64,000 nt of DNA from an uncultured Gemmatimonadales bacterium. GTDB taxonomy: Bacteria; Gemmatimonadota; Gemmatimonadetes; Gemmatimonadales; GWC2-71-9. The position numbers and the translations under genes are program-made. Below are positions 10,097 to 25,509 of the stretch, piece after piece (the stretch's first letter is position 1; each line of letters begins with the position of its first letter). The notes below the pieces were generated by a model. It had not been told where the DNA came from. It saw only the letters and a list, made by a program, of their open reading frames with translations, and made no database searches. The stretch spans positions 288,001 through 352,000 of the forward strand of contig CAVZZO010000003.1 in assembly GCA_963779755.1 (NCBI GenBank), in the 5' to 3' direction.

Positions 10097-10175
10097 GAGG
10101 CCTCCCGACGAGGAAGATACGGCAGGGGATTCATTTCAAAATACTCGGCGGCAGGCGGATGGCGAGAGCCGCCGG

Positions 10176-10532
10176 TCAGCGCCGCACCGTCCCTCGTACC
10201 CGGCCGCTGTTACACTCGACCCGGACCAGCTGATCGGGAGCGAGGCCGTAGCTGCCAGGGGGCGCTTCGTAGTCGCCATCTCCGCCGTAGGAGCGGATCA
10301 TCCGCAGGCGAATGGCGCGCGACGGATCGGCCATGGGGCTGCGGCATCCGCTGCCGGCGATGGTATCCGCCGGCAGGATCCGGAGGCCTCCTGGCACCGG
10401 CTCGAGGCGCAGCGGCAGCGCGGGAACGGGACGGATAGTCTCATTGCCCGGCCAGGAAGAAGGACCGCCGGCGCAGGCGGCAAGAAGGCAGAGGGCGGCT
10501 GCCGGGAGCAGCCGCCCGGGAGAAGTCGGCAC
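10176..10532 (-). CDS. Putative lipoprotein
   Basis: Lipobox LAAC. C-terminal GDYEAPPGSYGL...LVRVEC. Confidence 0.65.
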   Translation of the reverse strand: MPTSPGRLLPAAALCLLAACAGGPSSWPGNETIRPVPALPLRLEPVPGGLRILPADTIAGSGCRSPMADPSRAIRLRMIRSYGGDGDYEAPPGSYGLAPDQLVRVECNSGRVRGTVRR

Positions 10533-10576
10533 CGCTCAAAGCTAACAGCCGGCCGCCTCCGGTGGCAGCCGCCTGA

Positions 10577-11035
10577 TCAGGGCGCCTTGACCAGCACGCC
10601 CACCGCGCTGGCGCTGGAGTCGGCGTGGGTCGAGTCGATAATGGGCCAATCCCATCGAATATCCCCGCTGTTGATCGCCATCGTCGTGGCGCTGGTCAGG
10701 TTGTAGGAGAAGTGCGCGGTGGTCGCGTTCACGTTGAACAACGGCAGCGTGATGGTCCGACCGACGGTATCAACCGTACCCGAGAGATTCGCGGTATCAC
10801 TACCCAAGATCCGCTGCGCCGATACCGATGTGTTGGCAATGGTGAGGGTGAGGTCGGGGTGTGCCTTGAGGGTGGTGTCGTTCACGTTGTAGATGGTGAA
10901 CGTCGAGGCGACCCAGGTGCCCGAGACATCCCCCCCGGTAGGGTTCGGTTTGGTCGAGGACGAGCCGCCGCAGGCACCCAGCGCCGCCGCGGCGGCCAGC
11001 AGGAAAAACCGTGAGCAACGCAGAGATGGTATCAT
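10577..11035 (-). CDS. Putative lipoprotein (beta-rich, lipocalin-like N-terminus)
   Basis: Lipobox LGAC, then GGSSS linker, DVSGTWV motif and Thr-rich beta strands. Confidence 0.7.
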   Translation of the reverse strand: MIPSLRCSRFFLLAAAAALGACGGSSSTKPNPTGGDVSGTWVASTFTIYNVNDTTLKAHPDLTLTIANTSVSAQRILGSDTANLSGTVDTVGRTITLPLFNVNATTAHFSYNLTSATTMAINSGDIRWDWPIIDSTHADSSASAVGVLVKAP

Positions 11036-11404
11036 GGCCCCGCTCGGTGAGGTAGGAATGCCGGCACGCCGGCGCGCAGCCGCGGATGAGCCCCAGAGGG
11101 AGACGACCAAACCGGCTTCCCTGACACGCCCCCCCGGAGGGCCTGCCCCGAAGTATGAAACCGCATAGCCGACTGGCGCAATCGCCGATGGGGCCGCCCG
11201 CCGGGGGCGGGAGGGGCTCCCTCCCGGTTTGAAAGAAGTCTTCACCCTTTCTTTCGCCGTCATTCACCCCCCCTTCATTACGATGTGCATGCCGGTCAGG
11301 CGAGTAGCCCGGCCGGCTTCGTCCGTGACCGCGGCCGCATCCCCCACGGTGGCCCGGTGGCAGTCCACGGACGGTCCTGGCCCCCGGACCCTCGGAGTCT
11401 GGTC

Positions 11405-13336
11405 ATGCCTACGTCTGTCGCAGGTTCTTCGTCCGCGCCCGCGATCGCGGCCACCCCCGCCACCACGCGCCGGCTTTCTGAGCATACCGTCGAGATCGTC
11501 TCCGATTCCGGCGAAGGCGCCCAGAAATGCGGCCAGATCTTCGGCGCTGTTTCGGCCAAGATGGGCAACGGGGTCTGGACGGTCGAGATCATCCCGGCGG
11601 AGATCCAGCCGCCGCCCCGGGTCCCGGAAGGGGCCAGCGGTATCCGGATCCGGTTCGGCACCGAGCCGGTGACCAACTGGGGCGACAATACCCGCCTGGT
11701 GGTGGCCTTCAACGAACAGGTACTCCTGGCCCGACACCGCCTGGGCGCGCTCGCGCCCGACGCCACCGTCCTGCTGGAGAACAAGTGGGCCAATCATCCG
11801 GATGACGATGTCCGCCGTGCCTGGGAATCGGCACTGCAGGAGCTGGCGGCGCATTCCTATCGCATCGTTCCCGTGCCCATGGACGAGCAGTGTCTGACCA
11901 TCGTGGATAATCCGCGCAAGGGCAAGAACATGTTTGCCCTGGGGATGCTGGCCTGGATCTACCAGCGCGACCTCGACCGGATCCGCGACCAGATCGCCTA
12001 CGCCTTCCGCAAGAAGTCCGAGGCGGTCTACACCCAGAACGTCGCCCTGCTGGAGCTGGGGTACGCCTGGGCGGGCGAGCATCTGGATTTCCGCTATGAG
12101 GTCCCGGCCGCGCCGGCGACGGAACCGATGGTAGTGATGAACGGCAACGAGGCGGCCGGCATGGGCGCCATCGCGGCGGGGTTCGAACTGTGCGCCATGT
12201 ACCCCATTACCCCGGCCACCTCCGCCTCGCATTACCTGGGCGAAGTCTTCCATCGTTTCGGCGGGGTGCTGCATCAGGCGGAGGACGAGATCGCCGCGGT
12301 GGGCGTGGCCATCGGCGCCTCCTATGCGGGCAAAGTCGCCCTCACCATCACCAGCGGACCGGGGCTGGCGCTCAAGACCGAGTTCCTGGGCCTCGCGGTC
12401 ATGGCGGAAATCCCGCTGGTGGTGCTGGACGTCCAGCGGGGCGGCCCCAGCACGGGGCTCCCCACCAAGGTGGAGCAGTCGGATCTGCTGGCGGTGCTGT
12501 TCGGCCAGCCGGGCGATGCGCCCAAGGTGGTGCTGGCTCCGGCCACCATCGAAGAGTGCTTCCACGTGATGCTCACCGCCCGCCGGCTGGCCGAGGCGTT
12601 CCGCTGTGTCGTAGTGGTGCTGTCGGATGCCAATCTCGCCACCGGCGTCCAGCCCTTCCCCCGGCCAGTCCCGGAGGAACGCTGGCTGCGTACGTCGCTG
12701 GACCTGGGGCCGGTGCCGGAGGGGCAGAAGGCCTACGACTGGAATCCCGAGACGGGCCTCTCGCGCCGGGTCATCCCGGGCCAGGCCAACGGGATGTACA
12801 CCCTGACGGGCCTGGCGCACGACAGCCGCAGCAAGGTGGCCTACAGCAGCGGCATTCACCAGCACAGCTCCGCCATGCGCAGCCGGAAACTGGCCACCCT
12901 GCAGCAGACCCTGCTGCCCCCGGCGGTCAATGGCGACGACTCGGGCGATCTCCTGCTGGTGGGCTGGGGAAGCACCAAGGGAGCCATCGAGGAAGCCGTG
13001 GCCCGGGCGCGTGCCGGCGGGCTCCGCGTGAGCTCGGTGCACCTCACCTTCCTCTCGCCGCTGCAGCCCGGACTGCGCGAGATCTTCGCCCGTTTCGGCC
13101 GGGTCTGCACCGTGGAGCTCAACTACAGCGACGACCCGTCGGCGCCCGGCATTACGCCGGAGAACCGCCGCATGGGCCAGCTCGCCTGGCTGCTGCGCGC
13201 CGCCACACTGGTGGACGTGGACTGCTGGACCCGTGTGCCAGGCGAGCCGCTGCGGCCGCAGGCCATTCTGGAAGCCATTCAGGCCCGGCTCGATGGAGCC
13301 GGGGCCGCCTCTCCGATGACGCGAGGTGCCAAGTGA
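11405..13336 (+). CDS. korA: 2-oxoacid:ferredoxin oxidoreductase subunit alpha (gamma-alpha fusion, KorA type)
   Basis: DSGEGAQ, KNMFALG, MNGNEA, YPITPA, QAEDEIAA, TSGPG, DVQRGGPSTGLPTK, GWGST. Confidence 0.92.
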   Translation: MPTSVAGSSSAPAIAATPATTRRLSEHTVEIVSDSGEGAQKCGQIFGAVSAKMGNGVWTVEIIPAEIQPPPRVPEGASGIRIRFGTEPVTNWGDNTRLVVAFNEQVLLARHRLGALAPDATVLLENKWANHPDDDVRRAWESALQELAAHSYRIVPVPMDEQCLTIVDNPRKGKNMFALGMLAWIYQRDLDRIRDQIAYAFRKKSEAVYTQNVALLELGYAWAGEHLDFRYEVPAAPATEPMVVMNGNEAAGMGAIAAGFELCAMYPITPATSASHYLGEVFHRFGGVLHQAEDEIAAVGVAIGASYAGKVALTITSGPGLALKTEFLGLAVMAEIPLVVLDVQRGGPSTGLPTKVEQSDLLAVLFGQPGDAPKVVLAPATIEECFHVMLTARRLAEAFRCVVVVLSDANLATGVQPFPRPVPEERWLRTSLDLGPVPEGQKAYDWNPETGLSRRVIPGQANGMYTLTGLAHDSRSKVAYSSGIHQHSSAMRSRKLATLQQTLLPPAVNGDDSGDLLLVGWGSTKGAIEEAVARARAGGLRVSSVHLTFLSPLQPGLREIFARFGRVCTVELNYSDDPSAPGITPENRRMGQLAWLLRAATLVDVDCWTRVPGEPLRPQAILEAIQARLDGAGAASPMTRGAK

Positions 13337-14295
13337 ACGCCGGCGAGATGCTCTGCCCGCTGCTCCATGCCGTTGCCGAGCCGGGCGATCTCTCCTTCGA
13401 GATGTCGGATTACGAGGGCGCGCAGGCGCGCTGGTGCCCGGGCTGCGGCGATCATTCGGTCCTCACCGCGGTCGAGAAGCTGCTGGTGAGCGAACAGCTC
13501 CGCCCGGAACAGACGGTGTTCGTCTCCGGGATCGGCTGCTCCAGCCGCTTTCCCCACTACCTCAAGACCTACGGTTTCCACGGCATTCACGGCCGCGCGC
13601 TGCCGGTGGCAACCGGCATCAAGCTGCACCGGCCCGACCTCACCGTCTTCGTGGTGATGGGCGACGGCGATTGCACCTCGATCGGCGCGGGGCACTGGCT
13701 GCATGCGCTGCGCTATAACGTGCGCATGGTCGCCATGGTGCTCGACAACGCCATCTACGGCCTGACCAAGAACCAGACCTCGCCCACGACGCCGCAGGGG
13801 CATCCCAGCAACACGCAGCCCGGGGGCAGCTATCTCCCTGCCCTGAACCCCATCTCCATGGCGCTGGGGGTAAGCAACGCATCCTTCGTGGCCCAGACGG
13901 CGGAGTGGGTGCCGGCGCACCTGCTGGCCACGCTGCGCGCGGCCTATCACCATGAGGGGCTTGCCTTCGTGCGGATACTGCAGCGCTGCCCGGTGTTCAC
14001 TCCGGGCATCTTCCAGCAGGCGGTCCAGAAGCCCGACCTGATCGAGCTTCTGGTGCACGACGACGGTGTCGCCGCCCCGGAGCTGGAGAAGACCTACAAG
14101 AACCGCATCACACATGACCCGCACGACCTGGATCAGGCCCGCCGGCTGGCCGAGATGTCGGACCGGGTACGGCTCGGCGTGTTCTACCGGGACGAGTCGC
14201 GTGCCCGGTACGACCTCATCCGGCAGGTGCCGGCCCGCACGGCGGCCGACCGGATCTCCCTGCTCAACGCGGAGCTCGACAAGTATGCCGTCTGA
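13333..14295 (+). CDS. korB: 2-oxoacid:ferredoxin oxidoreductase subunit beta (TPP-binding)
   Basis: WCPGCGD, SGIGCSSR, HGRALP, GDGD..., DNAIYGLTKNQ, QRCP. GTGA overlap with korA. Confidence 0.92.
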   Translation: MNAGEMLCPLLHAVAEPGDLSFEMSDYEGAQARWCPGCGDHSVLTAVEKLLVSEQLRPEQTVFVSGIGCSSRFPHYLKTYGFHGIHGRALPVATGIKLHRPDLTVFVVMGDGDCTSIGAGHWLHALRYNVRMVAMVLDNAIYGLTKNQTSPTTPQGHPSNTQPGGSYLPALNPISMALGVSNASFVAQTAEWVPAHLLATLRAAYHHEGLAFVRILQRCPVFTPGIFQQAVQKPDLIELLVHDDGVAAPELEKTYKNRITHDPHDLDQARRLAEMSDRVRLGVFYRDESRARYDLIRQVPARTAADRISLLNAELDKYAV

Positions 14296-15295
14296 TCCTC
14301 GACTGGAGCAGGTCCAGGCCCTGGTGGCCGATGCCCAGGTGCGCTGCCGGGCGGCCATTGCCGCCGCGGCCGACCAGGTGGGCGACTATCTCGACAGCCA
14401 TCGGCAGCCGGCCGCGGGCGGCGGCGAGCCGCCGACGCGGCTGGGCCGGTTCGCGGCGGGGCGGATCAGCGAAAGCCGGTTCGCCTCGCTTTTCGAGCCC
14501 GACACGGTAGCCCCCGGGAGGCTGGAGCCCATGGAACGCGCCGCGGCGGTGCTGGCCGACGTCCTGGCGCAGGACGGCACCGCCGCGCAGATCCTGCCCC
14601 GGGGCGGCGATCTGGCGCGCCTGGTGGAAGACCAGCTGGCACGAACGGGCCGCGCCTTCGGCGCCGCGCTGCTGTTCCAGGCCGCCCGGGCCGGGGCATA
14701 CCGCCCCGATGAGCACGACCGGCTCCTGGAGGGGCTGCCCTTCAGACGCTGGAACCGGAGCGAGCGGCAGCTGGCACCGCCGATGGTCGTCCTGCTGGAC
14801 GGCGCCGATGCCCGGGCCGAAGGCCTGGCGCCGTTCCTCGACGGCGGCATCAAGATCGTCCTCGTCCTGGAGCCGCCCGTCTCACCGGCGCCGCTGGTCC
14901 GGCTGATCACTCCCGGCGTGTTCGTCATGCAGACGTCCAATCCAGCCGACCTCTCCCGGCTGATGAGCTTCGGCGGCCCCGGGATCGCGGCCCTGGTGCC
15001 CGAGGGCGCCGCCCGGTTCGTACACGATCCGGCCGCTGGCGGCGCTCTGGGTCAGCGGCTCGAGATTCAGCAGTTGCCGCCGGAGCCGCCCCGGGCACCG
15101 CTGGGAGGGCGCAGCGCCTGGCAGCAGCGGGAGGAGTTGACCCAGCTGGCGCTGCTGGCCGATCTCGCAGCGGCCCCGCCTGCCCTGGCACCCACCGGCG
15201 CACCGGCGGGCGGCGCGCAGTCGGTCGATGCCCTGGCGTCCTGGCTGCTGGCACAGGCCGGGCTGTCCCCCGCTCCGGGAGCACCGGCGACATGA
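14285..15295 (+). CDS. Uncharacterised protein OrfX, degenerate paralogue of the PFOR TPP-binding (beta) domain
   Basis: ATG overlaps korB and the stop overlaps rnfB (ATGA). Manual alignment to the downstream PFOR C-terminal domain is described in findings. Confidence 0.8.
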   Translation: MPSDPRLEQVQALVADAQVRCRAAIAAAADQVGDYLDSHRQPAAGGGEPPTRLGRFAAGRISESRFASLFEPDTVAPGRLEPMERAAAVLADVLAQDGTAAQILPRGGDLARLVEDQLARTGRAFGAALLFQAARAGAYRPDEHDRLLEGLPFRRWNRSERQLAPPMVVLLDGADARAEGLAPFLDGGIKIVLVLEPPVSPAPLVRLITPGVFVMQTSNPADLSRLMSFGGPGIAALVPEGAARFVHDPAAGGALGQRLEIQQLPPEPPRAPLGGRSAWQQREELTQLALLADLAAAPPALAPTGAPAGGAQSVDALASWLLAQAGLSPAPGAPAT

Positions 15296-16122
15296 TCTTC
15301 GCCGCCGTCGCCATCCTGGGCAGCGTCGGTCTCGTCTTCGGGACCCTCATCGCCCTCGCCAACCGGAAGCTCAAGGTCTGGGAAGACCCGCGTATCGACG
15401 TGGTGAACGGCCTGCTGCCCAACGCCAACTGCGGCGCCTGCGGCGAGCCGGGCTGCCGCGCCTTTGCCGAAAAGCTGGTGGCGGGTGCGGTAAAGCCGGC
15501 GGACTGCAATGTGGCCACCGATGAGGCGCGGGCGCAGATCGCGAGCTACCTGGGGGTGGATGCGGGCCAGGCGGTGCGCATCGGCGCGCGTCTGCTCTGC
15601 GCCGGCGGTGCCGCGGTGGCCCGCCAGCAGGCGGAGTACCGCGGGCTGCCCACCTGTGCCGCCGCGGCGGCCGTGGGCGGCGGCGGCAAGGGCTGCACCT
15701 GGGGCTGCCTGGGGCTGGCCGACTGCGTCCGTGCGTGCACCTTCGACGCCATGCGCATGAGCGGCGACGGCCTCCCGCTCATCGACCTGGAGAAGTGCAC
15801 CGCCTGCGGCGACTGCGTCACCGCCTGCCCCAAGGACCTGCTCGCCATCATGCCGCTGGATCAGCACCTGCTGGTGCGGTGCCGCAATCTCATGGCCGGC
15901 GACGACATTCTGGAAGACTGCAAGGTGGCCTGTACCACGTGCGGCAAGTGCGTGGCCGACGCGGCGGCGGGACTCATCAGCATCAGCAGCGGCGTCGCGG
16001 TGGTGGACTACCGGCTCAACGCCATGGCCGACGCGGCGGCAATCGCGCGCTGTCCGACCGGGGCTATCGTCTGGCTGGAGACGGGCTCCACCGCCTCCCT
16101 ACTCGTCGGGAGCACAACGTGA
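15292..16122 (+). CDS. rnfB: Rnf electron transport complex subunit B
   Basis: N-terminal TM, LPNANCGACGEPGC Fe-S domain, CTWGCLGLADCVRAC, CTACGDCVTACP. Confidence 0.92.
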   Translation: MIFAAVAILGSVGLVFGTLIALANRKLKVWEDPRIDVVNGLLPNANCGACGEPGCRAFAEKLVAGAVKPADCNVATDEARAQIASYLGVDAGQAVRIGARLLCAGGAAVARQQAEYRGLPTCAAAAAVGGGGKGCTWGCLGLADCVRACTFDAMRMSGDGLPLIDLEKCTACGDCVTACPKDLLAIMPLDQHLLVRCRNLMAGDDILEDCKVACTTCGKCVADAAAGLISISSGVAVVDYRLNAMADAAAIARCPTGAIVWLETGSTASLLVGSTT

Positions 16123-19100
16123 AACTCATGAGCACGTCGGCCAAGCCGGCGCCCAGGACCGAGCCCGCTGCCCCCCCGTTTCCCGGGACGCTCGAGGCGA
16201 TGGATGGCAGCGCCGCGGTGGTCGCCATGGAAACCCGCGCCAGCGAAGCGGCCGGCGCCTATCCCATCACCCCCTCCACCCAGATGGGCGAGGGGTGGGC
16301 CGCCGCGGTGGCCGACGGCACCCGGAACGTGAACGGCCGCCGGCTGATCTTCTTCGAGCCGGAAGGTGAGCATGCCGCCGCCGCGGTCACCGCGGGGCTC
16401 AGCATGACCGGGCTGCGGGCCGCCAACTTCTCCAGCGGCCAGGGCGTAGTGTACATGCACGAGTCGCTCTACCCCGCCGTGGGCAAGCGGCTCACCTATG
16501 TGCTCAACGTTGCCGCCCGGGCGCTCACCAAGCAGGCGCTCAACGTGCATGCCGGGCACGACGATTACCACGCGGTGGACGACACCGGCTTCTTTCAGCT
16601 CTTCGCCAAGGATGTCCAGGAGGTCGCCGACCTCAACCTGATTGCGCACCGCATCGCCGAGTTGTCGCTCAACCCCGGCATCCTGGCGCAGGACGGCTTC
16701 CTCACCAGCCACGTGCTGGAATCGCTGCGGGTGCCGGAGCCGGAGCTGATCCGCCGCTACCTGGGCGACCCCTCCGATCGCATTCCCTCGCCCACCCCGG
16801 CCCAACGGATGGTGTTCGGCGACGAGCGGCGGCGGATTCCCGAGCTGTTCGACGTGGACTACCCCGCCATGCTGGGCGTGGTCCAGAACCAGGACAGCTA
16901 CGCCCAGGGGGTGGCGGCGCAGCGGCCGTTCTACTTCGACCATGTAGCCGAGCTGTCCGACCGGGCGTTTGCCGAATTCGCGGCGCTCACCGGGCGCGCC
17001 TACGCGCGTTGCGGGGCCTACCGGCTGGAAGACGCGCAGTTCGTCATCGCCGGCCAGGGCAGCGTCATCCCCAACGCCGAGGCGATAGCCGACTGGTTGC
17101 GGGACACGCGGGGCCTGAAGGTAGGGGTGCTGAACCTCACCATGTTCCGTCCCTTCCCGGCCGACCTGGTGACCCGGCTGCTGGCGGGCAAGCGGGGTGT
17201 CGTGGTGCTGGAGCGCACCGACCAGCCCCTGGCGATCGACCCGCCGCTCCTGCGCGAGATCCGCGCGGCCATGAGCCAGGCGCTGGAGAACGGGCGCGAG
17301 GCGCAGTCGGCGCCGGTCCCCTACCCCGGGCTGGCCGGGCTGCAGCCGCACCAGGTACCCACCTTCTACAGTGGGTGTTTCGGGCTGGGCAGCAGGGATC
17401 TGCAGCCGGGCGACCTGGTGGCGGCAATAGAGAACATGCTGCCCGGGGGCCGCGGGCGGCGGCAGTTCTACCTCGGCATCGACTTCATCCGGACCGGCAC
17501 CCGTCTCCCCAAGCTGCAGATCTGGCAGGAACAGCTGCTGGAGCACTATCCCCAGCTGAAGGATCTGGCCTTGCCGTCCGCGGGCGACATCAACCTCATG
17601 TCGCCCAGTTCGGTCTCGCTGCGGATCCACTCGGTGGGCGGCTGGGGCGCGATCACCACGGGCAAGAACCTTTCGCTCACCGTGTTCGAGCTGCTCGGGA
17701 TGCACATCAAGGCCAACCCGAAATACGGCTCGGAAAAGAAGGGCCAGCCCACCACCTTCTACGCCACCTTCTCGCATGATCCGATCCGGCCCAACTGCGA
17801 ACTACGGCATGTGGACGTGGTGCTCTCGCCCGATCCCAACGTGTTCCGCCACTCCAATCCGCTGGCGGGCCTCTGCGATGGCGGTGTCTTCGTCATCCAG
17901 AGCGATCAGGCACCCGAGGATTTCTGGCGCGGCCTGCCGGCCTTTGCCCGGCACGACATCATGGAGCGGAAGATCCGGGTCTATACGCTGGACGCGTTTG
18001 CCATCGCGGCCAGCGAGGCCTCGGACGCCGAGCTGCGCTACCGGATGCAGGGCATCGCCTTCATGGGTGCCTTCTTCGCCGCCTCGCCGCTGCGGGAGCG
18101 GGAGGGCCTGAGCGAAGACGCGCTCTACGAGGGCATCCGCTCGCAGCTCACCCGGAAGTTTGGCTCCAAGGGCCAGCGGGTGGTGGAGGACAACCTGCGG
18201 GTGATCCGCCGCGGCGCGGCCGAGCTGCACGCCGTCACGGCGGCGGAGATTGCCGACGAGGCGGCGCCCGGCAGCGTTCCCGTCATGCCCGAGCTACTCC
18301 GCGCCGACAGCGCGGAACCGGGCATCGGCAATCAGGGCCGCTTCTGGGAGCAGGTGTGCTCGCTCTGGAAACTGGGGCAGGACGGGATCGCCGATCCCTT
18401 CGCGGCGATCAGCGCCATTCCGGCCGCGACCAGCGCGGTGCGGGACATGACCGACGTGCGCATGGAGGTGCCCCGGTTCATCGCCGAGAACTGCACCGGC
18501 TGCGCCCAGTGCTGGACCCAGTGCCCCGATGCCGCGATCCCCGGGCTGGTGACCGACCCCGAGGAGCTGCTGGCCGCCGCGGTGGCCCAGGCGGGCAGCC
18601 AGACCCCCATGGAGCGGCTGAAGCCCATCCTCAAGCCCCTGGGCCGCGAGGTGCGCCGGCTGCTGGGCGCCGGCCCCTTCACCTCCTTCGCCGATACGGT
18701 GGATCAGGCGGTGCAGGCGTTGAGCCCCAAGCTGGGGCTGGACCAGGCCAAACAGCAGGCGCTCGCCGCCGAAGTCGCGGCGGTCCGGACGGTGGTGGAA
18801 CGCTTCCCGCTGGCCCGGACGGCGGCCTTCTGGGACAACGCCGAGCGCAAGCAGAAGGGGTCGGGCGGGCTGCTGTCCATTACCATCAATCCGGAAGCCT
18901 GCAAAGGCTGCAACATCTGCGTGGATGTGTGCCCCGATGACGCCCTGGTCGCGGTGCGGCAGGACGAGGCGATGGTCTCCGAGCTGCGGACCAACTGGGC
19001 CTTCTGGCAGCGCCTGCCCGATACCCCCGACCGGTTCATCAACGTGCCGGATCTGGAACAGGGCATCGGGGTTCTCCCCACCCTGCTGCTGAAGAAAGGG

Positions 19101-21182
19101 AACTACCGCTCGATGGCGGGCGGCGACGGCGCCTGCATGGGGTGCGGCGAGAAGACCGCGGTGCACCTGGTGGTTTCGACCATCGAAGCGCTCATGCGGC
19201 CGCGGGTCGAGAAGCGGGTGCGCTACCTGGACGAACTGATCGCCGGCCTGGGCACGAAGGTGCGGGCGCTCCTTACGGCGGACGCCGACCTGGACGCGCT
19301 GGCCCGGGGCGCCGCCGATCATGTGACGCTGGCGCTGGATCCCGAGCGGCGCGCCGAGGTCGAGCGCCTCGCCCGCAGTGCGCGCGAGCTGAAGGACCTG
19401 CGCTGGCGCTATACCGAAGGCCCCAGCGGGCGCGGCCGGGCGCACCTGGCCATGGCCAACAGCACCGGGTGCAGCTCGGTATGGGCCAGCACCTACCCCT
19501 ACAACCCCTATCCCTTCCCCTGGGTGAATCACCTCTTCCAGGATAGCCCGTCGATCGCCATCGGCGTCTTCGAAGGCCACATGCGAAAGATGGCGGACGG
19601 ATTCGCCGCGGTGCGCCGGGCGGAGGGGCTGCTCGACGGCAGCTACGACGCGCAGGAGACCGAACGCGAGCTGTCGGGGCTGGAATGGAAGGACTTTACC
19701 GATGAGGAGTTTGCCCTCTGCCCGCCGGTGCTGGCGCTGGGAGGCGATGGGGCCATGCTGGATATCGGCTTCCAGAACCTCTCCCGGCTCATGGCCTCGG
19801 GCAAGCCGGTCCGGGTCATCGTGCTCGACACCCAGGTGTACTCCAACACCGGCGGCCAGGCCTGCACCAGCGGCTATACCGGCCAGGTCTCGGACATGGC
19901 CTGGTACGGCAAGGCCTCGCACGGGAAGACCGAGGTCCGCAAGGAGCTGGCGCTGATCGCCATGGCACACCGCGGGGTCTTCGTCCACCAGTCGTCGCAG
20001 GCGTCCGCCTCGCACCTGATGGGCGGGGTACTGCGGGCGTTGCAGGTCAGGCGGCCGGTGCTGATCAACCTGTACACGCCGTGTCCGGTGGAGCACGGGC
20101 TGGCGGATGACTGGGCCCAGCATGCCGCCCGGCTGGCGCTGGAGAGCCGCGCGTTCCCCTTCCTGACCTACGACCCCGATGCGGGCGACTCGTGGGCGTC
20201 CTGCCTCAGCCTGGACGGGAATCCATCGGTGGAGGACGCCTGGCCGACCTATACCCTGGACTACCAGGACGAGCACGGTGCCTCCCAGTCGATGGAGCTG
20301 CCGCTCACCACGGCCGACTGGGCCGCCACCGAAGGCCGCTTCCGCAAGCACTTCAAGAAGCTGGCGGCCGACGCCGACGGCGACCTGCTCCCGTTCCACG
20401 AGGTGGTGGCATTGCCGCCGGCGGAACGCGAGGGCAAGCAACCGTTCATCTACATGATGGGAAAGGACAAGCGGCTGGAGCGCTGGTCGGTCTCCGAGGA
20501 GATGGTTCACCTGGCGCAGGAGCGCCAGCTCTTCTGGGCCCAGTTGCGCGAACTGGCCGGGGTCCGGGTGAGCGACGCGGTGCGCCAGCAGGTGGCGGAC
20601 ACGCTCGAGAGCGAGCTGGAGGAGAAGTTGAACGCCGCCCGGCGGGAGTATGAGACGAAGATCGCCGAACTGCAGTCGAGCTACCCGGTGGCGATCGCCC
20701 GCCGGCTGGCGCAGGGGCTGCTGCAGGCGACCAGCCAGGGACAGACGCTGGACCAGTTGCTGGCGTCACTGCCGGCTGCGGCTCCCCTCCCGGCCAACGG
20801 AACCGCTGCGCCGATGCCGGCGCCCGCGGCTCCGGGATCGAACGGCCAGGCCGCGGCCGCACCCTCGACCACCTCGACCGCCTCGACCGTCTCAGCCGCT
20901 GCGACCGAGTCGGCGGAAGACGACGGCGGTACCCTCGTCATCGAGCCCTACATCGAGAGTGAGCGCTGCACCACCTGTAACGAGTGCACCAATCTCAACA
21001 AGAAGATGTTCGCCTATAACGCGGACAAACAGGCCTATATCAAAGACCCGAAGGCCGGCACCTTTGCCCAGCTGGTCCAGGCGGCGGAGAAGTGCCCGGT
21101 GGGCGCCATCCATCCGGGCACGCCGCTCAATCCGAAGGAGAAGGATCTCGACAAATGGCTGAAGCGGGCGCAGGCCTTCTGA
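16119..21182 (+). CDS. Pyruvate:ferredoxin oxidoreductase (NifJ-like single chain, ~1690 aa) with fused C-terminal ferredoxin
   Basis: YPITPST, EGEH.AA, NVAARA, SVGGWGA, YGSEKKG, two CxxCxxCxxxCP motifs, GACMGCGE, NSTGCSSVW, GGDG, YSNTGGQ, YTPC, C-terminal CTTCNEC...CPVGAIHPG. Start GTG 16119 or ATG 16128. Confidence 0.92.
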   Translation: MKLMSTSAKPAPRTEPAAPPFPGTLEAMDGSAAVVAMETRASEAAGAYPITPSTQMGEGWAAAVADGTRNVNGRRLIFFEPEGEHAAAAVTAGLSMTGLRAANFSSGQGVVYMHESLYPAVGKRLTYVLNVAARALTKQALNVHAGHDDYHAVDDTGFFQLFAKDVQEVADLNLIAHRIAELSLNPGILAQDGFLTSHVLESLRVPEPELIRRYLGDPSDRIPSPTPAQRMVFGDERRRIPELFDVDYPAMLGVVQNQDSYAQGVAAQRPFYFDHVAELSDRAFAEFAALTGRAYARCGAYRLEDAQFVIAGQGSVIPNAEAIADWLRDTRGLKVGVLNLTMFRPFPADLVTRLLAGKRGVVVLERTDQPLAIDPPLLREIRAAMSQALENGREAQSAPVPYPGLAGLQPHQVPTFYSGCFGLGSRDLQPGDLVAAIENMLPGGRGRRQFYLGIDFIRTGTRLPKLQIWQEQLLEHYPQLKDLALPSAGDINLMSPSSVSLRIHSVGGWGAITTGKNLSLTVFELLGMHIKANPKYGSEKKGQPTTFYATFSHDPIRPNCELRHVDVVLSPDPNVFRHSNPLAGLCDGGVFVIQSDQAPEDFWRGLPAFARHDIMERKIRVYTLDAFAIAASEASDAELRYRMQGIAFMGAFFAASPLREREGLSEDALYEGIRSQLTRKFGSKGQRVVEDNLRVIRRGAAELHAVTAAEIADEAAPGSVPVMPELLRADSAEPGIGNQGRFWEQVCSLWKLGQDGIADPFAAISAIPAATSAVRDMTDVRMEVPRFIAENCTGCAQCWTQCPDAAIPGLVTDPEELLAAAVAQAGSQTPMERLKPILKPLGREVRRLLGAGPFTSFADTVDQAVQALSPKLGLDQAKQQALAAEVAAVRTVVERFPLARTAAFWDNAERKQKGSGGLLSITINPEACKGCNICVDVCPDDALVAVRQDEAMVSELRTNWAFWQRLPDTPDRFINVPDLEQGIGVLPTLLLKKGNYRSMAGGDGACMGCGEKTAVHLVVSTIEALMRPRVEKRVRYLDELIAGLGTKVRALLTADADLDALARGAADHVTLALDPERRAEVERLARSARELKDLRWRYTEGPSGRGRAHLAMANSTGCSSVWASTYPYNPYPFPWVNHLFQDSPSIAIGVFEGHMRKMADGFAAVRRAEGLLDGSYDAQETERELSGLEWKDFTDEEFALCPPVLALGGDGAMLDIGFQNLSRLMASGKPVRVIVLDTQVYSNTGGQACTSGYTGQVSDMAWYGKASHGKTEVRKELALIAMAHRGVFVHQSSQASASHLMGGVLRALQVRRPVLINLYTPCPVEHGLADDWAQHAARLALESRAFPFLTYDPDAGDSWASCLSLDGNPSVEDAWPTYTLDYQDEHGASQSMELPLTTADWAATEGRFRKHFKKLAADADGDLLPFHEVVALPPAEREGKQPFIYMMGKDKRLERWSVSEEMVHLAQERQLFWAQLRELAGVRVSDAVRQQVADTLESELEEKLNAARREYETKIAELQSSYPVAIARRLAQGLLQATSQGQTLDQLLASLPAAAPLPANGTAAPMPAPAAPGSNGQAAAAPSTTSTASTVSAAATESAEDDGGTLVIEPYIESERCTTCNECTNLNKKMFAYNADKQAYIKDPKAGTFAQLVQAAEKCPVGAIHPGTPLNPKEKDLDKWLKRAQAF

Positions 21183-22525
21183 GCCGCCTCTGGCGCGGCG
21201 CCGGCGCCTTCGGGTTCCAGCACGGGGTCCATCCCCCGGAATCCAAGGAGCTGACGGCCCACCTGCCTATCCGGCGCATGCCGTTCCCGGACGAGGTCGT
21301 GTTGCCGCTGCGGCAGCACGCGGGCAAGCCGGCGCGCCCGGTGGTGCAGAAGGGCGACCGGGTGGAACGGGGCGACACGCTGGCGCTGGCCGACGGGTAC
21401 ATCTCCTCGCCGGTCCACGCCTCGGCCTCCGGCACGGTGGCGGCCGTGGACTGGTGGCCGCACCCCGACGGATCGATGGCGCCGGCGGTTCGTATCGCGG
21501 TGGAGCGCTGGAGCAGCCAGCTGGCACGGCCCCGGCTGGTTCCGGACTGGCACGGGCTGACCCACGAGCAGGTGATCAAGGCGGTCCAGGATGCCGGCGT
21601 GGTGGGCCTGGGCGGTGCCGCCTTCCCCACTCACGTCAAGCTGGCACCGCCCAAGGACGCGGTGATCGATACGATCATCGTGAACGGCGCGGAATGCGAG
21701 CCCTATCTCACGACCGACCACCGGATCATGGTGGAGTACCCCGACCGGGTGCACTTCGGCGTGCGGATCATGCTCCACGCCCTGGGCGTGAAGCGGGCGA
21801 TCATCGGAGTGGAACGCAACAAACCCGATGCCATCGAGGCCCTGGAGCGCACCCGGCCGCAGGATCTCGACATCACCATCCTGCCGCTCACGGTGAAATA
21901 CCCGCAGGGCGCGGAGAAGATGCTGATCAAGTCGGTGCTCGACCGGGAAGTGCCCTCGGGCAAGCTGCCGGCCAGCGCGGGCGTCATCGTGCAGAACGTA
22001 GGGTCGGTGGCTACGCTGGCGGAGGTGTTCGAGACCGGCCTGCCGCTGGTCGAGCGGATCGTGACGGTGAGCGGGCACGGGGTGCGGCGGCCGTCCAATC
22101 TGATCGTCCCGGTGGGGACCAAGGTCTCCGACCTGCTGGCGTTCTGCGGTGGGCTCACCGACGATGCAGCCGAGGTGCTCTTCGGCGGCCCCATGATGGG
22201 CATCTCGCAGCCGCGTCTGGAGGCGCCGGTTCTGAAGGGCACCACCGGGGTGGTGGTCCTGAGCGAGGCGGAGGTCCGGAGCCGCCGCAGCTATCCCTGC
22301 ATCCACTGCGGACGCTGCCTCGACGCCTGCCCCATGTTTCTCAATCCCTCGCTGCTGGGCGACCTGGCCCGGACCGCCAACTACGAGGAAATGGCCGAGC
22401 TGCACCTGTCCGACTGCATGCTGTGCGGATCGTGCAGCTACGTCTGCCCATCCAACATCCCGCTGGCTCAGCTGTTCCAGTCGAGCAAGGTGGCGCTGCG
22501 GCGCCTCCAGGCGGCTGCCCCGTGA
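21155..22525 (+). CDS. rnfC: Rnf complex subunit C (NADH/FMN-binding)
   Basis: GVHPPE.K, PVHASASG, GVVGLGGAAFPT, NGAECEPYLTTD, YPQGAEK, GGPMMG, two CxxCxxCxxxCP. Confidence 0.95.
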   Translation: MAEAGAGLLSRLWRGAGAFGFQHGVHPPESKELTAHLPIRRMPFPDEVVLPLRQHAGKPARPVVQKGDRVERGDTLALADGYISSPVHASASGTVAAVDWWPHPDGSMAPAVRIAVERWSSQLARPRLVPDWHGLTHEQVIKAVQDAGVVGLGGAAFPTHVKLAPPKDAVIDTIIVNGAECEPYLTTDHRIMVEYPDRVHFGVRIMLHALGVKRAIIGVERNKPDAIEALERTRPQDLDITILPLTVKYPQGAEKMLIKSVLDREVPSGKLPASAGVIVQNVGSVATLAEVFETGLPLVERIVTVSGHGVRRPSNLIVPVGTKVSDLLAFCGGLTDDAAEVLFGGPMMGISQPRLEAPVLKGTTGVVVLSEAEVRSRRSYPCIHCGRCLDACPMFLNPSLLGDLARTANYEEMAELHLSDCMLCGSCSYVCPSNIPLAQLFQSSKVALRRLQAAAP

Positions 22526-23532
22526 GCGCCGACGTCCGGTCCCTGCTGCTGCAGGCCTCGCCCCATCTCAAGGGACGGGACAGCACGCCCCGCATCATGT
22601 GGAACGTGGTGGGGAGTCTGCTCCCGATCGTGGCCGCCTCGGCGTACTTCTTCGGCCCCAGCGCGCTGCTGGTGCTGGCCGCGTCGGTGCTGGGCGCGCT
22701 GGCCACCGAGCGGCTCTTCGGCCGGGGCGGCACTCTGGCCGACGGCTCCGCCATGATCACCGGGCTGTTGCTGGGCCTCACCCTGCCGGCCGGCATGCCG
22801 CTCTGGATGGTGGTGCTGGGCGCCGCGTTCGCCATCGGGTTCGGCAAGCTGCTCTTCGGCGGCCTGGGCTACAACGTCTTCAATCCGGCACTGCTGGGCC
22901 GCGCTTTTCTCCAGGCCGCCTTCCCCGTGGCCATCACCACCTGGCCGGCGGCGGGCGGCTCCTGGTGGGCGCTCCGGGGCGACAACTTCGCGCTCCCGCT
23001 CATGAGCCCCAGGCTCACCGATGCCGTAACCTCCGCGACGCCGCTCGGCGCCATGAAGTTCGAGCACCACGGCACGGCGCTCTCCCACCTGCTGCTGGGG
23101 ACCACGGGCGGCTCGCTGGGCGAGACGGCGGGCCTGCTGATCCTGCTCTGCGGCGCCTGGCTGGCCTGGCAGGGCTATCTCAACTGGCGGATTCCGGCAG
23201 GGATCCTGGCCACGGTCGCGGCGGCAAGCGGCCTCCTGCACACGCTGGCACCGGCGAAGTACCCGACGCCGCTCTTCATGCTCTTCTCCGGCGGCCTCAT
23301 TCTGGGCACGGTCTTCATGGCCACCGACATGGTCACCGCGCCGGTGACCAACGCGGGGCGCTGGATCTTCGCCGCGGGCATCGGTGCCCTGGTGGTGATC
23401 ATCCGTATCTGGGGCGGACTGCCGGAAGGGGTCATGTACGCGATTCTGCTGATGAACGCCTTTGTGCCGTTCATCAACCGGGCGACACAGCCGCGGGTCT
23501 TCGGAACCGGGCGGGTCAAGGTGGCCGCATGA
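22522..23532 (+). CDS. rnfD: Rnf complex subunit D
   Basis: SPH, DGSA.ITGLLL, FGGLGYNVFNPA, FMN site TSATPL, GSLGET, FMATD.VT.P. Confidence 0.95.
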   Translation: MSADVRSLLLQASPHLKGRDSTPRIMWNVVGSLLPIVAASAYFFGPSALLVLAASVLGALATERLFGRGGTLADGSAMITGLLLGLTLPAGMPLWMVVLGAAFAIGFGKLLFGGLGYNVFNPALLGRAFLQAAFPVAITTWPAAGGSWWALRGDNFALPLMSPRLTDAVTSATPLGAMKFEHHGTALSHLLLGTTGGSLGETAGLLILLCGAWLAWQGYLNWRIPAGILATVAAASGLLHTLAPAKYPTPLFMLFSGGLILGTVFMATDMVTAPVTNAGRWIFAAGIGALVVIIRIWGGLPEGVMYAILLMNAFVPFINRATQPRVFGTGRVKVAA

Positions 23533-24182
23533 GCGCCGGATCCCTTCCCGTGGTGGACACCCCGCAGGTCCCCAGTTGGCGGCTGCTGGCGACGCTGGGC
23601 GGCGCGGGCGCGCTGGCCGGGCTACTCATCGTGCTGGTGTACGGCTGGACCCGGCCGCGGATCGAGGCACACCGCGCGGCAGTGCTGCGCGACGCCATCG
23701 AGGAGGTGCTGCACGCGCCGGCCCGGGCCGACACGCTCTTTGTGCTGAACGGCGCCCTGGTGGCCGACCCGGGCAACGCCGCCCGGGAAAAGCTGGACCG
23801 GGTCTACCGGGGGTACGACGACGCGGGCCGCCCCACGGGGTATGCCATCGTGGCCTCGGAACCGGGCTTCCAGGACCAGGTGGAGCTGATCTTCGGCTAC
23901 AACCCGGCCACCCACGAAATCCTCGGCATGAAAATCCTCGAAAGCAAGGAAACACCGGGGCTGGGCGACCGGATCGAACGGCCGGCGTTCGGAGCGCAGT
24001 TCGCGGGCCGCACCGCACCGGTCACCGGGGTGAAGGGCTCCGCCCCGCCGGACGACCGGAGCGCGGTCGTGATGATCACCGGGGCCACCATCTCCTCGCG
24101 CACGGTGATCCGTGAAATCAATAACGCGGTGGCGCACTGGCAGCCGCTGATCGAGGCCTATCAGGCCGGGGCACAGCCATGA
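23529..24182 (+). CDS. rnfG: Rnf complex subunit G (FMN-binding)
   Basis: N-terminal TM, ETPGLG, flavinylation motif ITGATISS. Confidence 0.93.
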   Translation: MSAGSLPVVDTPQVPSWRLLATLGGAGALAGLLIVLVYGWTRPRIEAHRAAVLRDAIEEVLHAPARADTLFVLNGALVADPGNAAREKLDRVYRGYDDAGRPTGYAIVASEPGFQDQVELIFGYNPATHEILGMKILESKETPGLGDRIERPAFGAQFAGRTAPVTGVKGSAPPDDRSAVVMITGATISSRTVIREINNAVAHWQPLIEAYQAGAQP

Positions 24183-24931
24183 CCGATTCGTCCCCTCAGC
24201 CGCTCTCCTGCCACACGGTCCCGGCGCCCGGCGCCACGACGTCGGTGAGCGCGCGGGAAGACCTGCTCAAGGGCATCTGGCGGGACAACCCGGTACTGGT
24301 CCAGGTGCTGGGGCTCTGCCCCACCCTCGCGGTGACCAACAGCGTGGCCAACGCGCTGGCCATGGGCATCGCGACGCTCTTCGTGCTGGTGGGCTCGAGC
24401 TTCCTGGTATCGAGCCTGCGCAAGCTGATCCCCAACGAGGTCCGTATCACCAGCTACGTCCTGATCATCGCGACCTTCGTGACGGTGGCGGACATGGGAC
24501 TGCAGGCGGCCGTGCCCGACATCCACAAGGCGCTGGGGGCCTTCATCGCCCTCATCGTGGTCAACTGCATCATCCTGGGGCGCCAGGAAGCGTTCTCGTC
24601 GCGGAATACCATCGGGCGCTCGGTGCTCGACGCGCTGGGCATGGGCGCCGGATTCATGCTGACGCTGCTGCTCATGGGCGGCATCCGTGAGGTGATCGGA
24701 AACGGCACCTTCCTGGGCCATCCGCTGTTCGGCCCCCACTACGAGCCCTGGGTGGTGATGATCCTGCCGCCGGGCGGGTTCCTGACCCTGGGCGTGATTC
24801 TGCTGGGGATCGCCTGGGTCCATGAGCGGCGCAACCGTCGCGCGGCCGCGCGGGCGGTTCTGGCCGAGGCTCTGTCCGCGCCCGGGGCCCCGGGGCCGCA
24901 GCCGGCGCGCGAGCCGGCGGGAGCGATCTGA
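24179..24931 (+). CDS. rnfE: Rnf complex subunit E
   Basis: NPVLVQVLGLCPTLAVT, LIVVNCIILGR, REVIG, LPPGGF. Confidence 0.95.
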   Translation: MTDSSPQPLSCHTVPAPGATTSVSAREDLLKGIWRDNPVLVQVLGLCPTLAVTNSVANALAMGIATLFVLVGSSFLVSSLRKLIPNEVRITSYVLIIATFVTVADMGLQAAVPDIHKALGAFIALIVVNCIILGRQEAFSSRNTIGRSVLDALGMGAGFMLTLLLMGGIREVIGNGTFLGHPLFGPHYEPWVVMILPPGGFLTLGVILLGIAWVHERRNRRAAARAVLAEALSAPGAPGPQPAREPAGAI

Positions 24932-25509
24932 TGGGCGACCTGCTGTGGATCTTCGTCAGCGCCATGCTGGTGAACAACTTCACCCTGGTGCTGTTCCTGG
25001 GGCTCTGCCCCTTCCTGGGCGTCACCAAGAAGCTGGGGCCGGCCCTGCGGCTGGGCGCGGCGAACCTGTTCGTCCTGCTGCTCACCTCGCTCAGCGTCAC
25101 CTTCCTCAACACCTTCGTGCTGCGCTCGGCGCCCTACCTGCGGCTCATCGCGTTCATCGTGGTGATCGCCTCGCTGGTGCAGATCGTTGAAATGACGGTC
25201 AAGAAGTTCAGCCCCACGCTGTTCCGGGAGCTGGGAATCTATCTGCCGCTCATCACCACCAATTGCGCCATCCTGGCCCTGGCCATCTTCCAGACCAACC
25301 GGGCCTACAGCGTGCTGCAGGGCGTGGCGTTTGCGCTGGGAGCGGGCCTGGGGCTGACGCTCGCCCTGACGCTCATGGCGTCGATCCGCGAACGGCTGGA
25401 CTTCGCCGACGTGCCGGCCATCGCCAAGGGCGTCGGGCTGGTGCTGATCGTAGCGGGCAGCCTCTCGCTCGCCTTCATGGGCTTCGCCGGCCTGGGGAGC
25501 GGATCATGA
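24931..25509 (+). CDS. rnfA: Rnf complex subunit A
   Basis: VNNF.L..FLGLCPFLG, LGIYLPLITTNCA, IRERL, LAFMGFAG. Confidence 0.95.
   Translation: MGDLLWIFVSAMLVNNFTLVLFLGLCPFLGVTKKLGPALRLGAANLFVLLLTSLSVTFLNTFVLRSAPYLRLIAFIVVIASLVQIVEMTVKKFSPTLFRELGIYLPLITTNCAILALAIFQTNRAYSVLQGVAFALGAGLGLTLALTLMASIRERLDFADVPAIAKGVGLVLIVAGSLSLAFMGFAGLGSGS

Follow-up and report, generated by a model that had tools for sequence, protein, structure and literature searches.

A conserved gene between korB and rnfB in Gemmatimonadota encodes a remote, very probably non-catalytic relative of the PFOR thiamine-diphosphate domain

Results

The window analysed here is a stretch of 64,000 nucleotides from a genome with 68% G+C, a composition that yields Ala/Arg/Gly-rich proteins. 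It carries an operon with the gene order korA-korB-orfX-rnfB-PFOR-rnfCDGEA; nucleotide positions are those of the window, and all features described below lie on the forward (+) strand. The korA gene (11405..13336) encodes the alpha subunit of a 2-oxoacid:ferredoxin oxidoreductase, matching TIGR03710 and, at E=7e-80, the structure 6n2n_A, while korB (13348..14295; PF02775, TIGR02177) encodes an intact beta, thiamine-diphosphate-binding subunit, which keeps the conserved cysteine and GDG columns. The orfX coding sequence (14285..15295) specifies a protein of 336 aa and is followed by rnfB (15292..16122; Pfam/NCBIfam). A long single-chain PFOR (1684 aa) that carries a Fer4_13 domain at its C-terminus (16128..21182; Pfam/NCBIfam) is encoded between rnfB and rnfC, and the Pfam-assigned genes rnfC, rnfD, rnfG, rnfE and rnfA (21092..25509) come next; the sole strong terminator-like hairpin lies directly past rnfA (25529-25550). 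The operon is unusual in that the genes of a complete Rnf complex are intermingled with those of two 2-oxoacid:ferredoxin oxidoreductases. A search with the PFOR region returned long Gemmatimonadota-type proteins in all of the 120 matches listed.

The arrangement is conserved in other genomes. Among loci all seeded with OrfX, KorB was encoded upstream in 78/78 cases, RnfB downstream in 77/77 and PFOR downstream in 61/62. In the sequence of the window, the start of orfX (ATG at 14285) overlaps the stop of korB (14293-14295) by 11 nt (14285..14295), and the identical overlap was found in 53/53 assessable loci; this invariance points to equimolar synthesis of the two proteins. At its other end the orfX stop overlaps the rnfB start in an ATGA (15292..15295), whereas elsewhere the two genes are mostly separated by a gap of 4-36 nt (65/72 loci), with a 4-nt overlap in 4/72. 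A previous reading made from the sequence only had described orfX as an intact, translationally coupled reading frame, and both junctions bear this out.

Besides its open frame and translation, the GC content at the three codon positions of orfX (0.82/0.56/0.86) follows the pattern of a coding frame. The protein has 646 homologues at E<=1e-3, forming 419 representative clusters at 50% identity, nearly all of them from Gemmatimonadota. In 21/21 independent pairs dN/dS was between 0.10 and 0.34, indicating purifying selection; the ratio exceeded that of KorB in 19/21 pairs, and the median identity to the window protein was 44% for OrfX versus 60-71% for its neighbours. OrfX is therefore a real, conserved and syntenic gene under purifying selection. 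Scans of Pfam and NCBIfam, Rnf family models (RnfA-E, G, H) included, matched OrfX to 0 families at E<=1, while KorB and PFOR were matched in the same scans. The best score in the ESM Atlas was 0.78, to viral ATPase-like clusters and under the lead threshold of the tool. Among proteins of 589-2000 aa the sole match was an apparent KorB-OrfX fusion (P0382, 651 aa), which we read as a frameshifted read-through: its KorB part continues, out of frame, into the frame that lies open ahead of OrfX, and the OrfX part has a garbled sequence around the conserved motif described below. In full-text searches of the literature outside subscription journals, we found no description of the OrfX protein, of a PFOR-in-rnf operon in Gemmatimonadota or of a dead thiamine-diphosphate (PP) domain partner in oxidoreductase or Rnf systems.

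The OrfX monomer was modelled with a pLDDT of 88.3. Its residues 52-70 (14438..14494) form a nearly invariant motif with the consensus ELGxFAAGRIDxxRF, in which L53, G54, F56, A57, G59, R60, D62 and R65 hardly vary. This motif stood out before any complex was predicted, being nearly invariant and yet modelled with a pLDDT of just 60-71. It is followed by an alpha/beta core resembling a PP domain (residues 100-297; 14582..15175), as indicated by the core model, Foldseek and hhalign, and, after a variable linker, by a C-terminal amphipathic helix (residues 312-324; 15218..15256) with nearly invariant D315, L317, W320, L321 and L322, delimited from conservation and the model.

The sequence-only reading had aligned, without gaps, 50 residues of OrfX (14633-14782) to 50 of the PFOR (19578-19727), and the two stretches and their 13/50 identities were confirmed. 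Taken alone, 13/50 identities are no better than chance: between PFOR and 200 shuffles of OrfX, the best ungapped 50-residue window had 14.5 identities on average and 19 at most. With BLOSUM62 the best window scored 54 (the 13/50 window 51) against 34.5 +/- 6.2 for the shuffles, 4/200 of which reached 54. At the DNA level the stretches agree at 71/150 positions, and 2000 random in-frame window pairs gave a mean of 48.7 +/- 5.9 and a maximum of 70. Gapped BLASTP of this one pair only aligned OrfX 113-199 with PFOR 1147-1237 (28.5 bits, E=0.001, 25/91 identities).

Comparison of family profiles with hhalign gave a score of 42.9 (P=3.3e-4, probability 38%), the closest block being OrfX 125-168 (14657..14788) on PFOR 1159-1202 (19602..19733). 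Reversed profiles scored 21.1 and 20.0, 40 column shuffles 19.0 +/- 3.4 and at most 30.9, and even the true homologues KorB and PFOR scored just 30.5. OrfX was colinear with PFOR 1017-1401, its residues 125-168, 169-196, 203-222 and 246-272 corresponding to PFOR 1159-1202, 1204-1234, 1268-1290 and 1347-1373; the further colinear blocks proposed earlier are all present in the BLASTP or hhalign alignments. When the best block was removed, OrfX 169-300 ranked PFOR 1347-1373 first (score 29.4, P=0.0063, shuffle maximum 22.8), and OrfX 240-300 alone gave P=9.8e-4, making OrfX 246-272 (15020..15100) a second, independent block. To its partner (20166..20246) solved PFORs align too; PFOR 1159-1202 is specific to the long PFOR subtype, and solved PFORs do not align at 1155-1195. 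A search of 10,694 ORFs with the OrfX HMM gave 19 non-self matches at E<=0.1, all of them PFOR ORFs and all at the same place, the window's own PFOR being found at E=1.0. Homology to a bona fide PP-domain member was thus detectable by hhalign, by the second block and by the HMM.

The profiles of KorA, KorB, RnfB and RnfC scored at background level with OrfX (12.5-19.6; RnfB 12.5, RnfC 16.7), with P=0.1 for KorB. No significant similarity of the N-terminal 120 residues to anything was found, and P=0.18 for OrfX 1-120 against PFOR gives no support for homology in the N-terminal part. Searches of PDB sequences with the OrfX family profiles retrieved no thiamine enzyme; the sole matches, SigA (E=0.2) and ATP synthase c (E=0.85), were taken as chance. 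Each of these homology tests is marginal by itself.

A Foldseek comparison with PFOR structures had been suggested as a check of the proposed relationship, and its outcome was mixed. Against 350,542 PDB chains, the full OrfX model ranked seven PFOR chains first, and 14/15 of the first listed rows were thiamine-diphosphate enzymes (best E 3.3e-3). The core refolded alone (residues 98-300, pLDDT 93.8) found thiamine-diphosphate enzymes in all of the first 11 rows, with a best E of 0.086, worse than for the full model. PFOR, transketolase and DXS lead both lists, but neither contains anything at E<=1e-3, and the TM-scores are 0.21-0.41 with large rmsd. The predicted structural similarity to PFOR is accordingly to be read as a ranking signal only.

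The thiamine-diphosphate/Mg motif has the form GDG-(about 25-30 residues)-N/NN, and the beta subunits of 2-oxoacid:ferredoxin oxidoreductases, like PFOR domain VI, supply four cysteine ligands for a proximal [4Fe-4S] cluster. The PFOR of the window has the motif intact, from GDG (1205-1207) through YSNTGGQ (1238-1244) at 19740..19859. Aligned to its G-D1206-G1207, OrfX has a remnant, D172-G173-A-D175 (14798..14809), with D172 kept in 99/107, G173 in 106/107 and D175 in 105/107 family sequences; D186 and G187 are also nearly invariant. Neither the BLASTP nor the hhalign alignment contains an OrfX counterpart of YSNTGGQ, so that only the D-G of the motif remains. The family has no conserved cysteine: no column holds one in more than 36/107 sequences, and the mean is 1.4 per sequence. 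With the loop absent and no cysteine conserved, OrfX is, as far as its sequence tells, very probably non-catalytic. The earlier description of lost motifs is therefore right for the loop, the cysteines and the integrity of GDG, of which the Asp-Gly is kept. The retained D-G-x-D leaves room for a possible residual ligand site.

Complex prediction with OrfX and KorA gave a score of 0.68 (runs 0.68, 0.55 and 0.70); the best of 3 controls, like the prediction in which KorA was replaced, reached 0.00. In calibration, the mark that this prediction reached was attained by 116 out of 157 complexes of solved structure and by 2 out of 215 mismatched pairs, counts that hold only roughly because own alignments were used here. 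The runs share at least 50% of contacts, with a partner pLDDT of at least 70. Confident contacts were predicted with KorA only, and residues 52-70 make up the whole confident side of OrfX, facing KorA residues 377-398, 426-427, 450-452, 498-504 and 548-554 (12533-12598, 12680-12685, 12752-12760, 12896-12916 and 13046-13066) in the model. OrfX is thus predicted to bind KorA through its N-terminal motif. As the prediction used KorA 240-600, that is, KorA cut free of domain III, of its last 43 residues (part of domain II when KorA is aligned to 6n2n_A) and of the second alpha-beta pair, the groove may be artificially exposed. The docking motif lies outside the PFOR-like core of OrfX.

Discussion

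The sequence, profile and fold-ranking data agree on one region and on the order within it, and support the view that OrfX is a remote paralogue of the PP domain of PFOR, which we take to be "domain VI" in the numbering of the Desulfovibrio africanus enzyme. The sequence-only reading had reached this view from an alignment whose 13/50 identities are non-significant by themselves; it now draws support from BLASTP, the profiles and the fold ranking, tempered by weak Foldseek statistics and by scans in which no Pfam, NCBIfam or PDB sequence profile was matched. Of the other checks which that reading had named, dN/dS and linkage to RnfB and PFOR came out in its favour. The complex prediction (with KorA residues 240-600) placed OrfX on KorA by a motif outside the PFOR-like core and lends no support to the roles put forward there, the replacement of a PFOR protomer surface or a bridge to RnfB. 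OrfX would represent a family that is new, restricted to one phylum and descended from a degenerate thiamine-binding domain, with a putative partner and function.

Its closest likeness is to the PP domain of single-chain PFORs, those of D. africanus (1b0p, 2c3y) and M. thermoacetica (6cin-6ciq) taking the top Foldseek ranks, and to the neighbouring PFOR, with which its blocks are colinear. Unlike that domain, OrfX is free-standing, and its N-terminal 120 residues carry the predicted docking motif, which has no PFOR counterpart; moreover, the solved PFORs lie beyond the range of its sequence profiles. KorB/PorB beta subunits (such as 6n2n_B, 9bt4_C and 5exe_F), each a separate PP-domain protein of some 300 aa with an alpha subunit as its partner, occur among the Foldseek matches. 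OrfX is likewise predicted on the alpha subunit, but through a linear motif on domains I/II of KorA rather than through the PP:Pyr active-site interface, and its profile similarity to KorB is at background. Since KorB is intact in the same operon, OrfX comes in addition to it and does not replace it. A catalytic-domain fold that is probably kept, cofactor residues that are lost and purifying selection are also features of pseudoenzymes and inactive paralogue subunits in general.

We consider it reasonably probable that OrfX is a non-catalytic descendant of the PP domain of the long PFOR and most likely serves the KorAB 2-oxoacid:ferredoxin oxidoreductase as a third, accessory subunit. Its core, about residues 100-297, would descend from the PFOR encoded two genes downstream. 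Having lost the Mg/diphosphate loop and all four cluster cysteines, it could, we propose, carry out neither thiamine catalysis nor electron transfer. The invariant start/stop overlap would let OrfX be synthesised in step with KorB, and the motif 52-70, disordered alone, is predicted to clamp onto KorA at a site flanked by the end of domain I and by domain II. The PFOR-like body would then remain free, as would the conserved C-terminal helix. As this body has a subtype-specific surface segment in common with PFOR, KorAB, itself devoid of a ferredoxin domain, might gain a PFOR-like docking surface to RnfB, ferredoxin or PFOR; it is from this that we infer an adaptor role.

It is very unlikely that the resemblance to PFOR is a matter of chance or composition and OrfX an unrelated alpha/beta protein in the operon. 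Such an origin would fit the 13/50 identities, which lie under the chance optimum, the Foldseek values (E>=3e-3, TM<=0.41), the hhalign probability of 38% without Pfam or PDB profile matches, and the Ala/Arg/Gly-rich proteins of a G+C-rich genome. However, two independent blocks fall at colinear positions of one domain and both score above all shuffles, PFOR alone was matched at E<=0.1 among 10,694 ORFs of like composition, and PFORs top both searches of the PDB chains. Even less credence is due to the idea that OrfX is a sensor regulating KorAB, with the D-G-x-D turn binding a diphosphate or nucleotide-like effector. D172, G173, D175, D186 and G187 are indeed nearly invariant despite the loss of the remaining motif; yet the metal/diphosphate motif has had its second half deleted, a PP domain alone, without a Pyr domain, cannot bind thiamine diphosphate productively, and the D-G may be a mere structural turn after a strand.

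A PFOR-derived, non-catalytic OrfX could, as the sequence-only reading proposed, act on RnfB or the long PFOR instead of KorA, tethering an oxidoreductase to the Rnf complex or capping a PFOR surface, and this we hold to be unlikely. The segment that the OrfX core has in common with PFOR 1155-1195, absent from solved PFORs, fits a subtype-specific surface, orfX directly precedes rnfB in 77/77 loci, and the C-terminal helix, which is left free in the model with KorA, might engage another partner; such contacts are compatible with the KorAB subunit if OrfX is a bridge. On the other hand, the invariant translational coupling is to korB, the spacing to rnfB being mostly a gap of 4-36 nt, and the complex prediction, which covered KorA 240-600, has its only confident contacts with KorA. 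It is improbable, too, that OrfX is not a stoichiometric subunit but a factor that assists KorAB only transiently in its assembly or protection, for instance as an oxygen shield or as a chaperone during the insertion of a cofactor or cluster. Its faster evolution than the neighbours (44% vs 60-71% median identity), its dN/dS above that of KorB and the predicted docking by a short linear motif would suit such a factor. Cultured Gemmatimonadota are aerobes and oxidoreductases of the KorAB class are often oxygen-sensitive, which would suit it as well. Against it, the 11-nt overlap speaks for equimolar production, and the scans of Pfam and NCBIfam showed no similarity of OrfX to a known maturation factor.

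A bolder extension of the KorAB subunit, which we regard as doubtful, is that the OrfX adaptor wires KorAB into a PFOR-Rnf assembly, as a 2-oxoacid:NAD+ ion-translocating supercomplex. The N-terminal motif would sit on KorA, the fossil PP domain would display the subtype-specific surface of PFOR, and the C-terminal helix would extend to RnfB or the membrane. If this were true, ion pumping and the reduction of NAD+ would be linked directly to the oxidation of 2-oxoglutarate and pyruvate in aerobic Gemmatimonadota, and the reverse direction, for reductive carboxylation, would also be conceivable.

For a family labelled only as hypothetical protein in databases, these data give a fold origin and a candidate partner. 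Should OrfX prove to be a structural subunit, it would illustrate how a thiamine domain with a catalytic past can be turned into a scaffold, and it would give a handle on the coupling of ferredoxin-dependent oxidoreductases to Rnf. The same operon is carried by the cultured Gemmatirosa kalamazoonensis KBS708, and the idea is therefore testable at the bench.

A conserved gene between korB and rnfB

The gene orfX (14285-15295; 336 aa) belongs to a string of plus-strand genes in which it is preceded by korA (11405-13336) and korB (13348-14295) and followed by rnfB (15292-16122), a gene for a single-chain PFOR of 1684 aa (16128-21182), the genes rnfC, rnfD, rnfG, rnfE and rnfA (to 25509) and apbE (25589-26653). 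The only strong terminator-like hairpin (25529-25550) is located directly 3' of rnfA. The ATG of orfX lies within the end of korB (an 11-nt overlap that takes in the korB stop), its stop codon shares the overlap ATGA with the start of rnfB, and its G+C content by codon position (0.82/0.56/0.86) is like that of the adjoining genes, in a window of about 68% G+C. The 11-nt overlap with korB was present in all 53 loci with both ends readable, which agrees with the sequence-only reading of OrfX as an intact, translationally coupled ORF. Downstream, a gap of 4-36 nt separates orfX from rnfB in 65 of 72 loci, with a 4-nt overlap in four and an aberrant arrangement in three. The OrfX frame is also open for 219 nt 5' of its ATG, within korB (14066-14284), and one database protein of 651 aa (P0382) reads through from KorB into OrfX in this frame, apparently because of a frameshift.

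OrfX is a real, conserved and strictly syntenic gene product. A word-indexed search in which 8000 candidates were scored gave 646 homologues at E<=1e-3, all similar in length, and every named one is a "hypothetical protein" from Gemmatimonadota. An exhaustive search returned 419 cluster representatives at E<=1e-3, 264 of them at E<=1e-30, and the 107-sequence alignment has a mean column identity of 51%. No description of the protein was found in the portion of the literature reached by full-text searches. Synteny was counted in loci found through OrfX itself, the best 80 of 144 relatives in a genome scan: KorB is encoded immediately upstream in 78/78 assessable loci, RnfB immediately downstream in 77/77, and a long PFOR follows in 61/62, its gene lying between rnfB and rnfC. 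The sole locus with enough flank yet without a PFOR match downstream of OrfX is L005 (CP070716.1), where the RnfB match stops at residue 175 and a run of 200 N occurs elsewhere; this may reflect faulty assembly or a genuine rearrangement.

By record title, 72 of these best 80 loci are from Gemmatimonadota, Longimicrobiales included. The other eight (L027, L034, L038, L044, L047, L054, L055 and L065) belong to bins that bear the labels Acidimicrobiia, Planctomycetia, Acidobacteriota, Rokubacteria, Myxococcaceae or "uncultured bacterium"; the operon is the same in them, and mis-binning or lateral transfer could be the reason. The cultured Gemmatirosa kalamazoonensis KBS708 carries this operon too, on plasmid 1 (1.1 Mb), with the whole korAB-orfX-rnfB-PFOR-rnfC cluster at 6040-17283 of NZ_CP007129.1 (L081), a replicon annotated as a plasmid and not the main chromosome.

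OrfX is under purifying selection, with dN/dS of 0.10-0.34 in 21/21 independent pairs, values that exceed those of KorB in 19 of the 21. Relative to the proteins of the window, the median identity of OrfX is 44%, as opposed to 60-71% for its neighbours. One pair (L057/L032) gave a dN/dS of 1.07 for KorB and normal-looking values for OrfX (0.24) and RnfB (0.09), and the KorB value is probably explained by one korB having a frameshift or a misaligned HSP.

Relationship of OrfX to the long PFOR

On the basis of a manual ungapped alignment, OrfX had been proposed to be a hidden, catalytically dead paralogue of the thiamine-diphosphate-binding (PP) domain of PFOR. The 13/50 identities are present as described, but the count is no better than chance and is meaningless alone, because shuffled OrfX sequences average 14.5 identities in their best ungapped 50-residue window against PFOR (200 shuffles). 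Other measures do exceed chance. By BLOSUM62, the best window sums to 54 (51 for the window originally reported), against 34.5 +/- 6.2 in the shuffles, of which 4/200 reached 54. At the DNA level the two stretches share 71/150 positions, the maximum among 2000 random in-frame window pairs being 70, and gapped BLASTP aligned OrfX 113-199 with PFOR 1147-1237 (E=0.001, 25/91 identities).

When the OrfX profile was compared by hhalign with one built from 44 long PFORs taken from the loci, OrfX 125-168 matched PFOR 1159-1202 with a score of 42.9 (P=3.3e-4, probability 38%). Reversed PFOR and reversed OrfX scored 21.1 and 20.0, 40 column shuffles gave 19.0 +/- 3.4 (maximum 30.9), and OrfX against KorA, KorB, RnfB and RnfC gave 12.5-19.6; even KorB and PFOR, which are undoubted homologues, reached only 30.5. 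After removal of this block, the top match of OrfX 169-300 was again to PFOR (1347-1373; score 29.4, P=0.0063; 30 shuffles, 16.8 +/- 2.9, maximum 22.8), and OrfX 240-300 alone gave P=9.8e-4. A third colinear match (OrfX 211-221 with PFOR 1283-1293) has P=0.096, and PFOR 578-597 competes out of order for the same OrfX strand. A low-stringency alignment extends colinearly over OrfX 9-297 and PFOR 1017-1401, with gaps at the PFOR catalytic loops; the further colinear blocks named in the sequence-only reading all turn up in the hhalign or BLASTP alignments.

Moreover, an OrfX-family HMM was run against every stop-to-stop ORF of 60 aa or longer in the 80 loci and the window (10,694 ORFs), a set of the same composition as OrfX that includes many spurious frames. 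Besides 81 self matches, everything it retrieved at E<=0.1 was a PFOR ORF (19 in all), and at E<=1 there were 33 PFOR ORFs and one other, a 660-aa ORF within the PFOR gene of locus L069. The best domains begin without exception at HMM positions 120-129; the PFOR of the window itself reached only E=1.0.

OrfX had no Pfam or NCBIfam match at E<=1, and its profiles gave only chance matches to PDB sequences. Solved PFORs do not align to PFOR residues ~1155-1195, the site of the strongest OrfX block, which explains this silence and points to the long PFOR subtype as the probable source of OrfX; the second block falls in the part common to solved PFORs. This PFOR is unusually long: it scores 400 bits to TIGR02176 against a cut-off of 911, has two Fer4 motifs (782-800 and 918-940) with a spacing of about 120 residues and, where the PP domain begins, about 80 additional residues after the CxxC and before the following cluster Cys, and carries a C-terminal extension of about 270 residues whose end is a ferredoxin domain for a single cluster (Fer4_13, 1610-1662).

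In the AlphaFold2 model of OrfX (pLDDT 88.3, pTM 0.81), a long helix forms the N-terminus and confidence is lower over residues 41-80; the alpha/beta core has a hairpin and strands at 167-172, 190-196, 213-217 and 233-237, and two helices make up the C-terminus. Among 350,542 PDB chains, Foldseek placed PFOR chains at ranks 1-7 (best 2c3y_B, E=3.3e-3, probability 0.82), followed by DXS, a split transketolase, a PorB and SucA, so that thiamine-diphosphate enzymes make up 14 of the first 15 matches listed; none reached E<=1e-3, and the query-normalised TM was 0.18-0.24. With the core alone (98-300; pLDDT 93.8) PFOR was again first and the first 11 matches listed were all thiamine enzymes (best E 0.086, TM 0.26-0.41). 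Thus, PFORs lead both searches but with weak scores, and the predicted structure is consistent with a heavily trimmed PP domain, although it is not proof by itself.

Probable loss of catalysis and possible role of OrfX

The motif loss previously proposed for OrfX holds. The PFOR stretch bearing YSNTGGQ has no counterpart in OrfX, and no Cys is conserved (no column has Cys in more than 36/107 sequences), the Cys and GDG motifs being kept in PFOR and KorB. A remnant of GDG persists: D172 and G173 align with its D-G and are nearly invariant (99/107 and 106/107). Thiamine diphosphate binding by a PP domain further depends on a Pyr domain, and together with the missing motifs this makes it very likely that OrfX has lost catalysis.

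As the korB/orfX coupling is invariant, KorA (240-600) and KorB (19-315) were chosen as partners for a complex prediction with OrfX, using a separate alignment for each chain. The score was 0.68 (runs 0.68, 0.55 and 0.70) against 0.00 for the best of three controls, and was abolished when KorA was replaced; in calibration, the mark was reached by 116/157 solved complexes and 2/215 mismatched pairs, counts that are only rough here. Contact agreement between runs was at least 50% and partner pLDDT at least 70. All confident contacts join OrfX 52-70 to KorA 377-398, 426-427, 450-452, 498-504 and 548-554, and residues 52-70 are exactly the nearly invariant motif of low monomer confidence, which in the model behaves as expected for a docking peptide. 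We know of no comparable complex of three chains, which makes it unlikely that the score reflects a memorised structure. The modelled KorA lacks domain III and its last 43 residues, which alignment to 6n2n_A assigns to domain II, and the second alpha-beta pair is not part of the model, which may leave the groove artificially open; the predicted docking expresses model confidence and is not a measurement.

Most likely, OrfX is the relic of a PP domain that now serves KorAB as an accessory protein without catalysis; KorAB is an OGOR-like pair, with KorA matching 6n2n_A at E=7e-80. OrfX would be anchored to KorA through residues 52-70, and its PFOR-like body, together with the conserved C-terminal helix (312-324), may present RnfB, ferredoxin or PFOR with a docking surface like that of PFOR. 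Docking is our preferred guess for this body and helix; protection and assembly are the main alternatives. OrfX is derived from a PP domain yet lacks the motifs that define that family, and its role would be new and non-catalytic.

Other features of the gene string

In its longest version the rnfC ORF begins inside the PFOR gene, for an overlap of 91 nt (21092-21182). In most loci the RnfC match begins at residue 38-42 of this ORF, so the true start is probably further downstream. Divergent from korA, an ORF of 227 aa on the minus strand (10577-11263) has no Pfam match; it looks like a lipoprotein, with a hydrophobic stretch in its mid-region and, after this, a Cys and a region rich in Ser/Thr.
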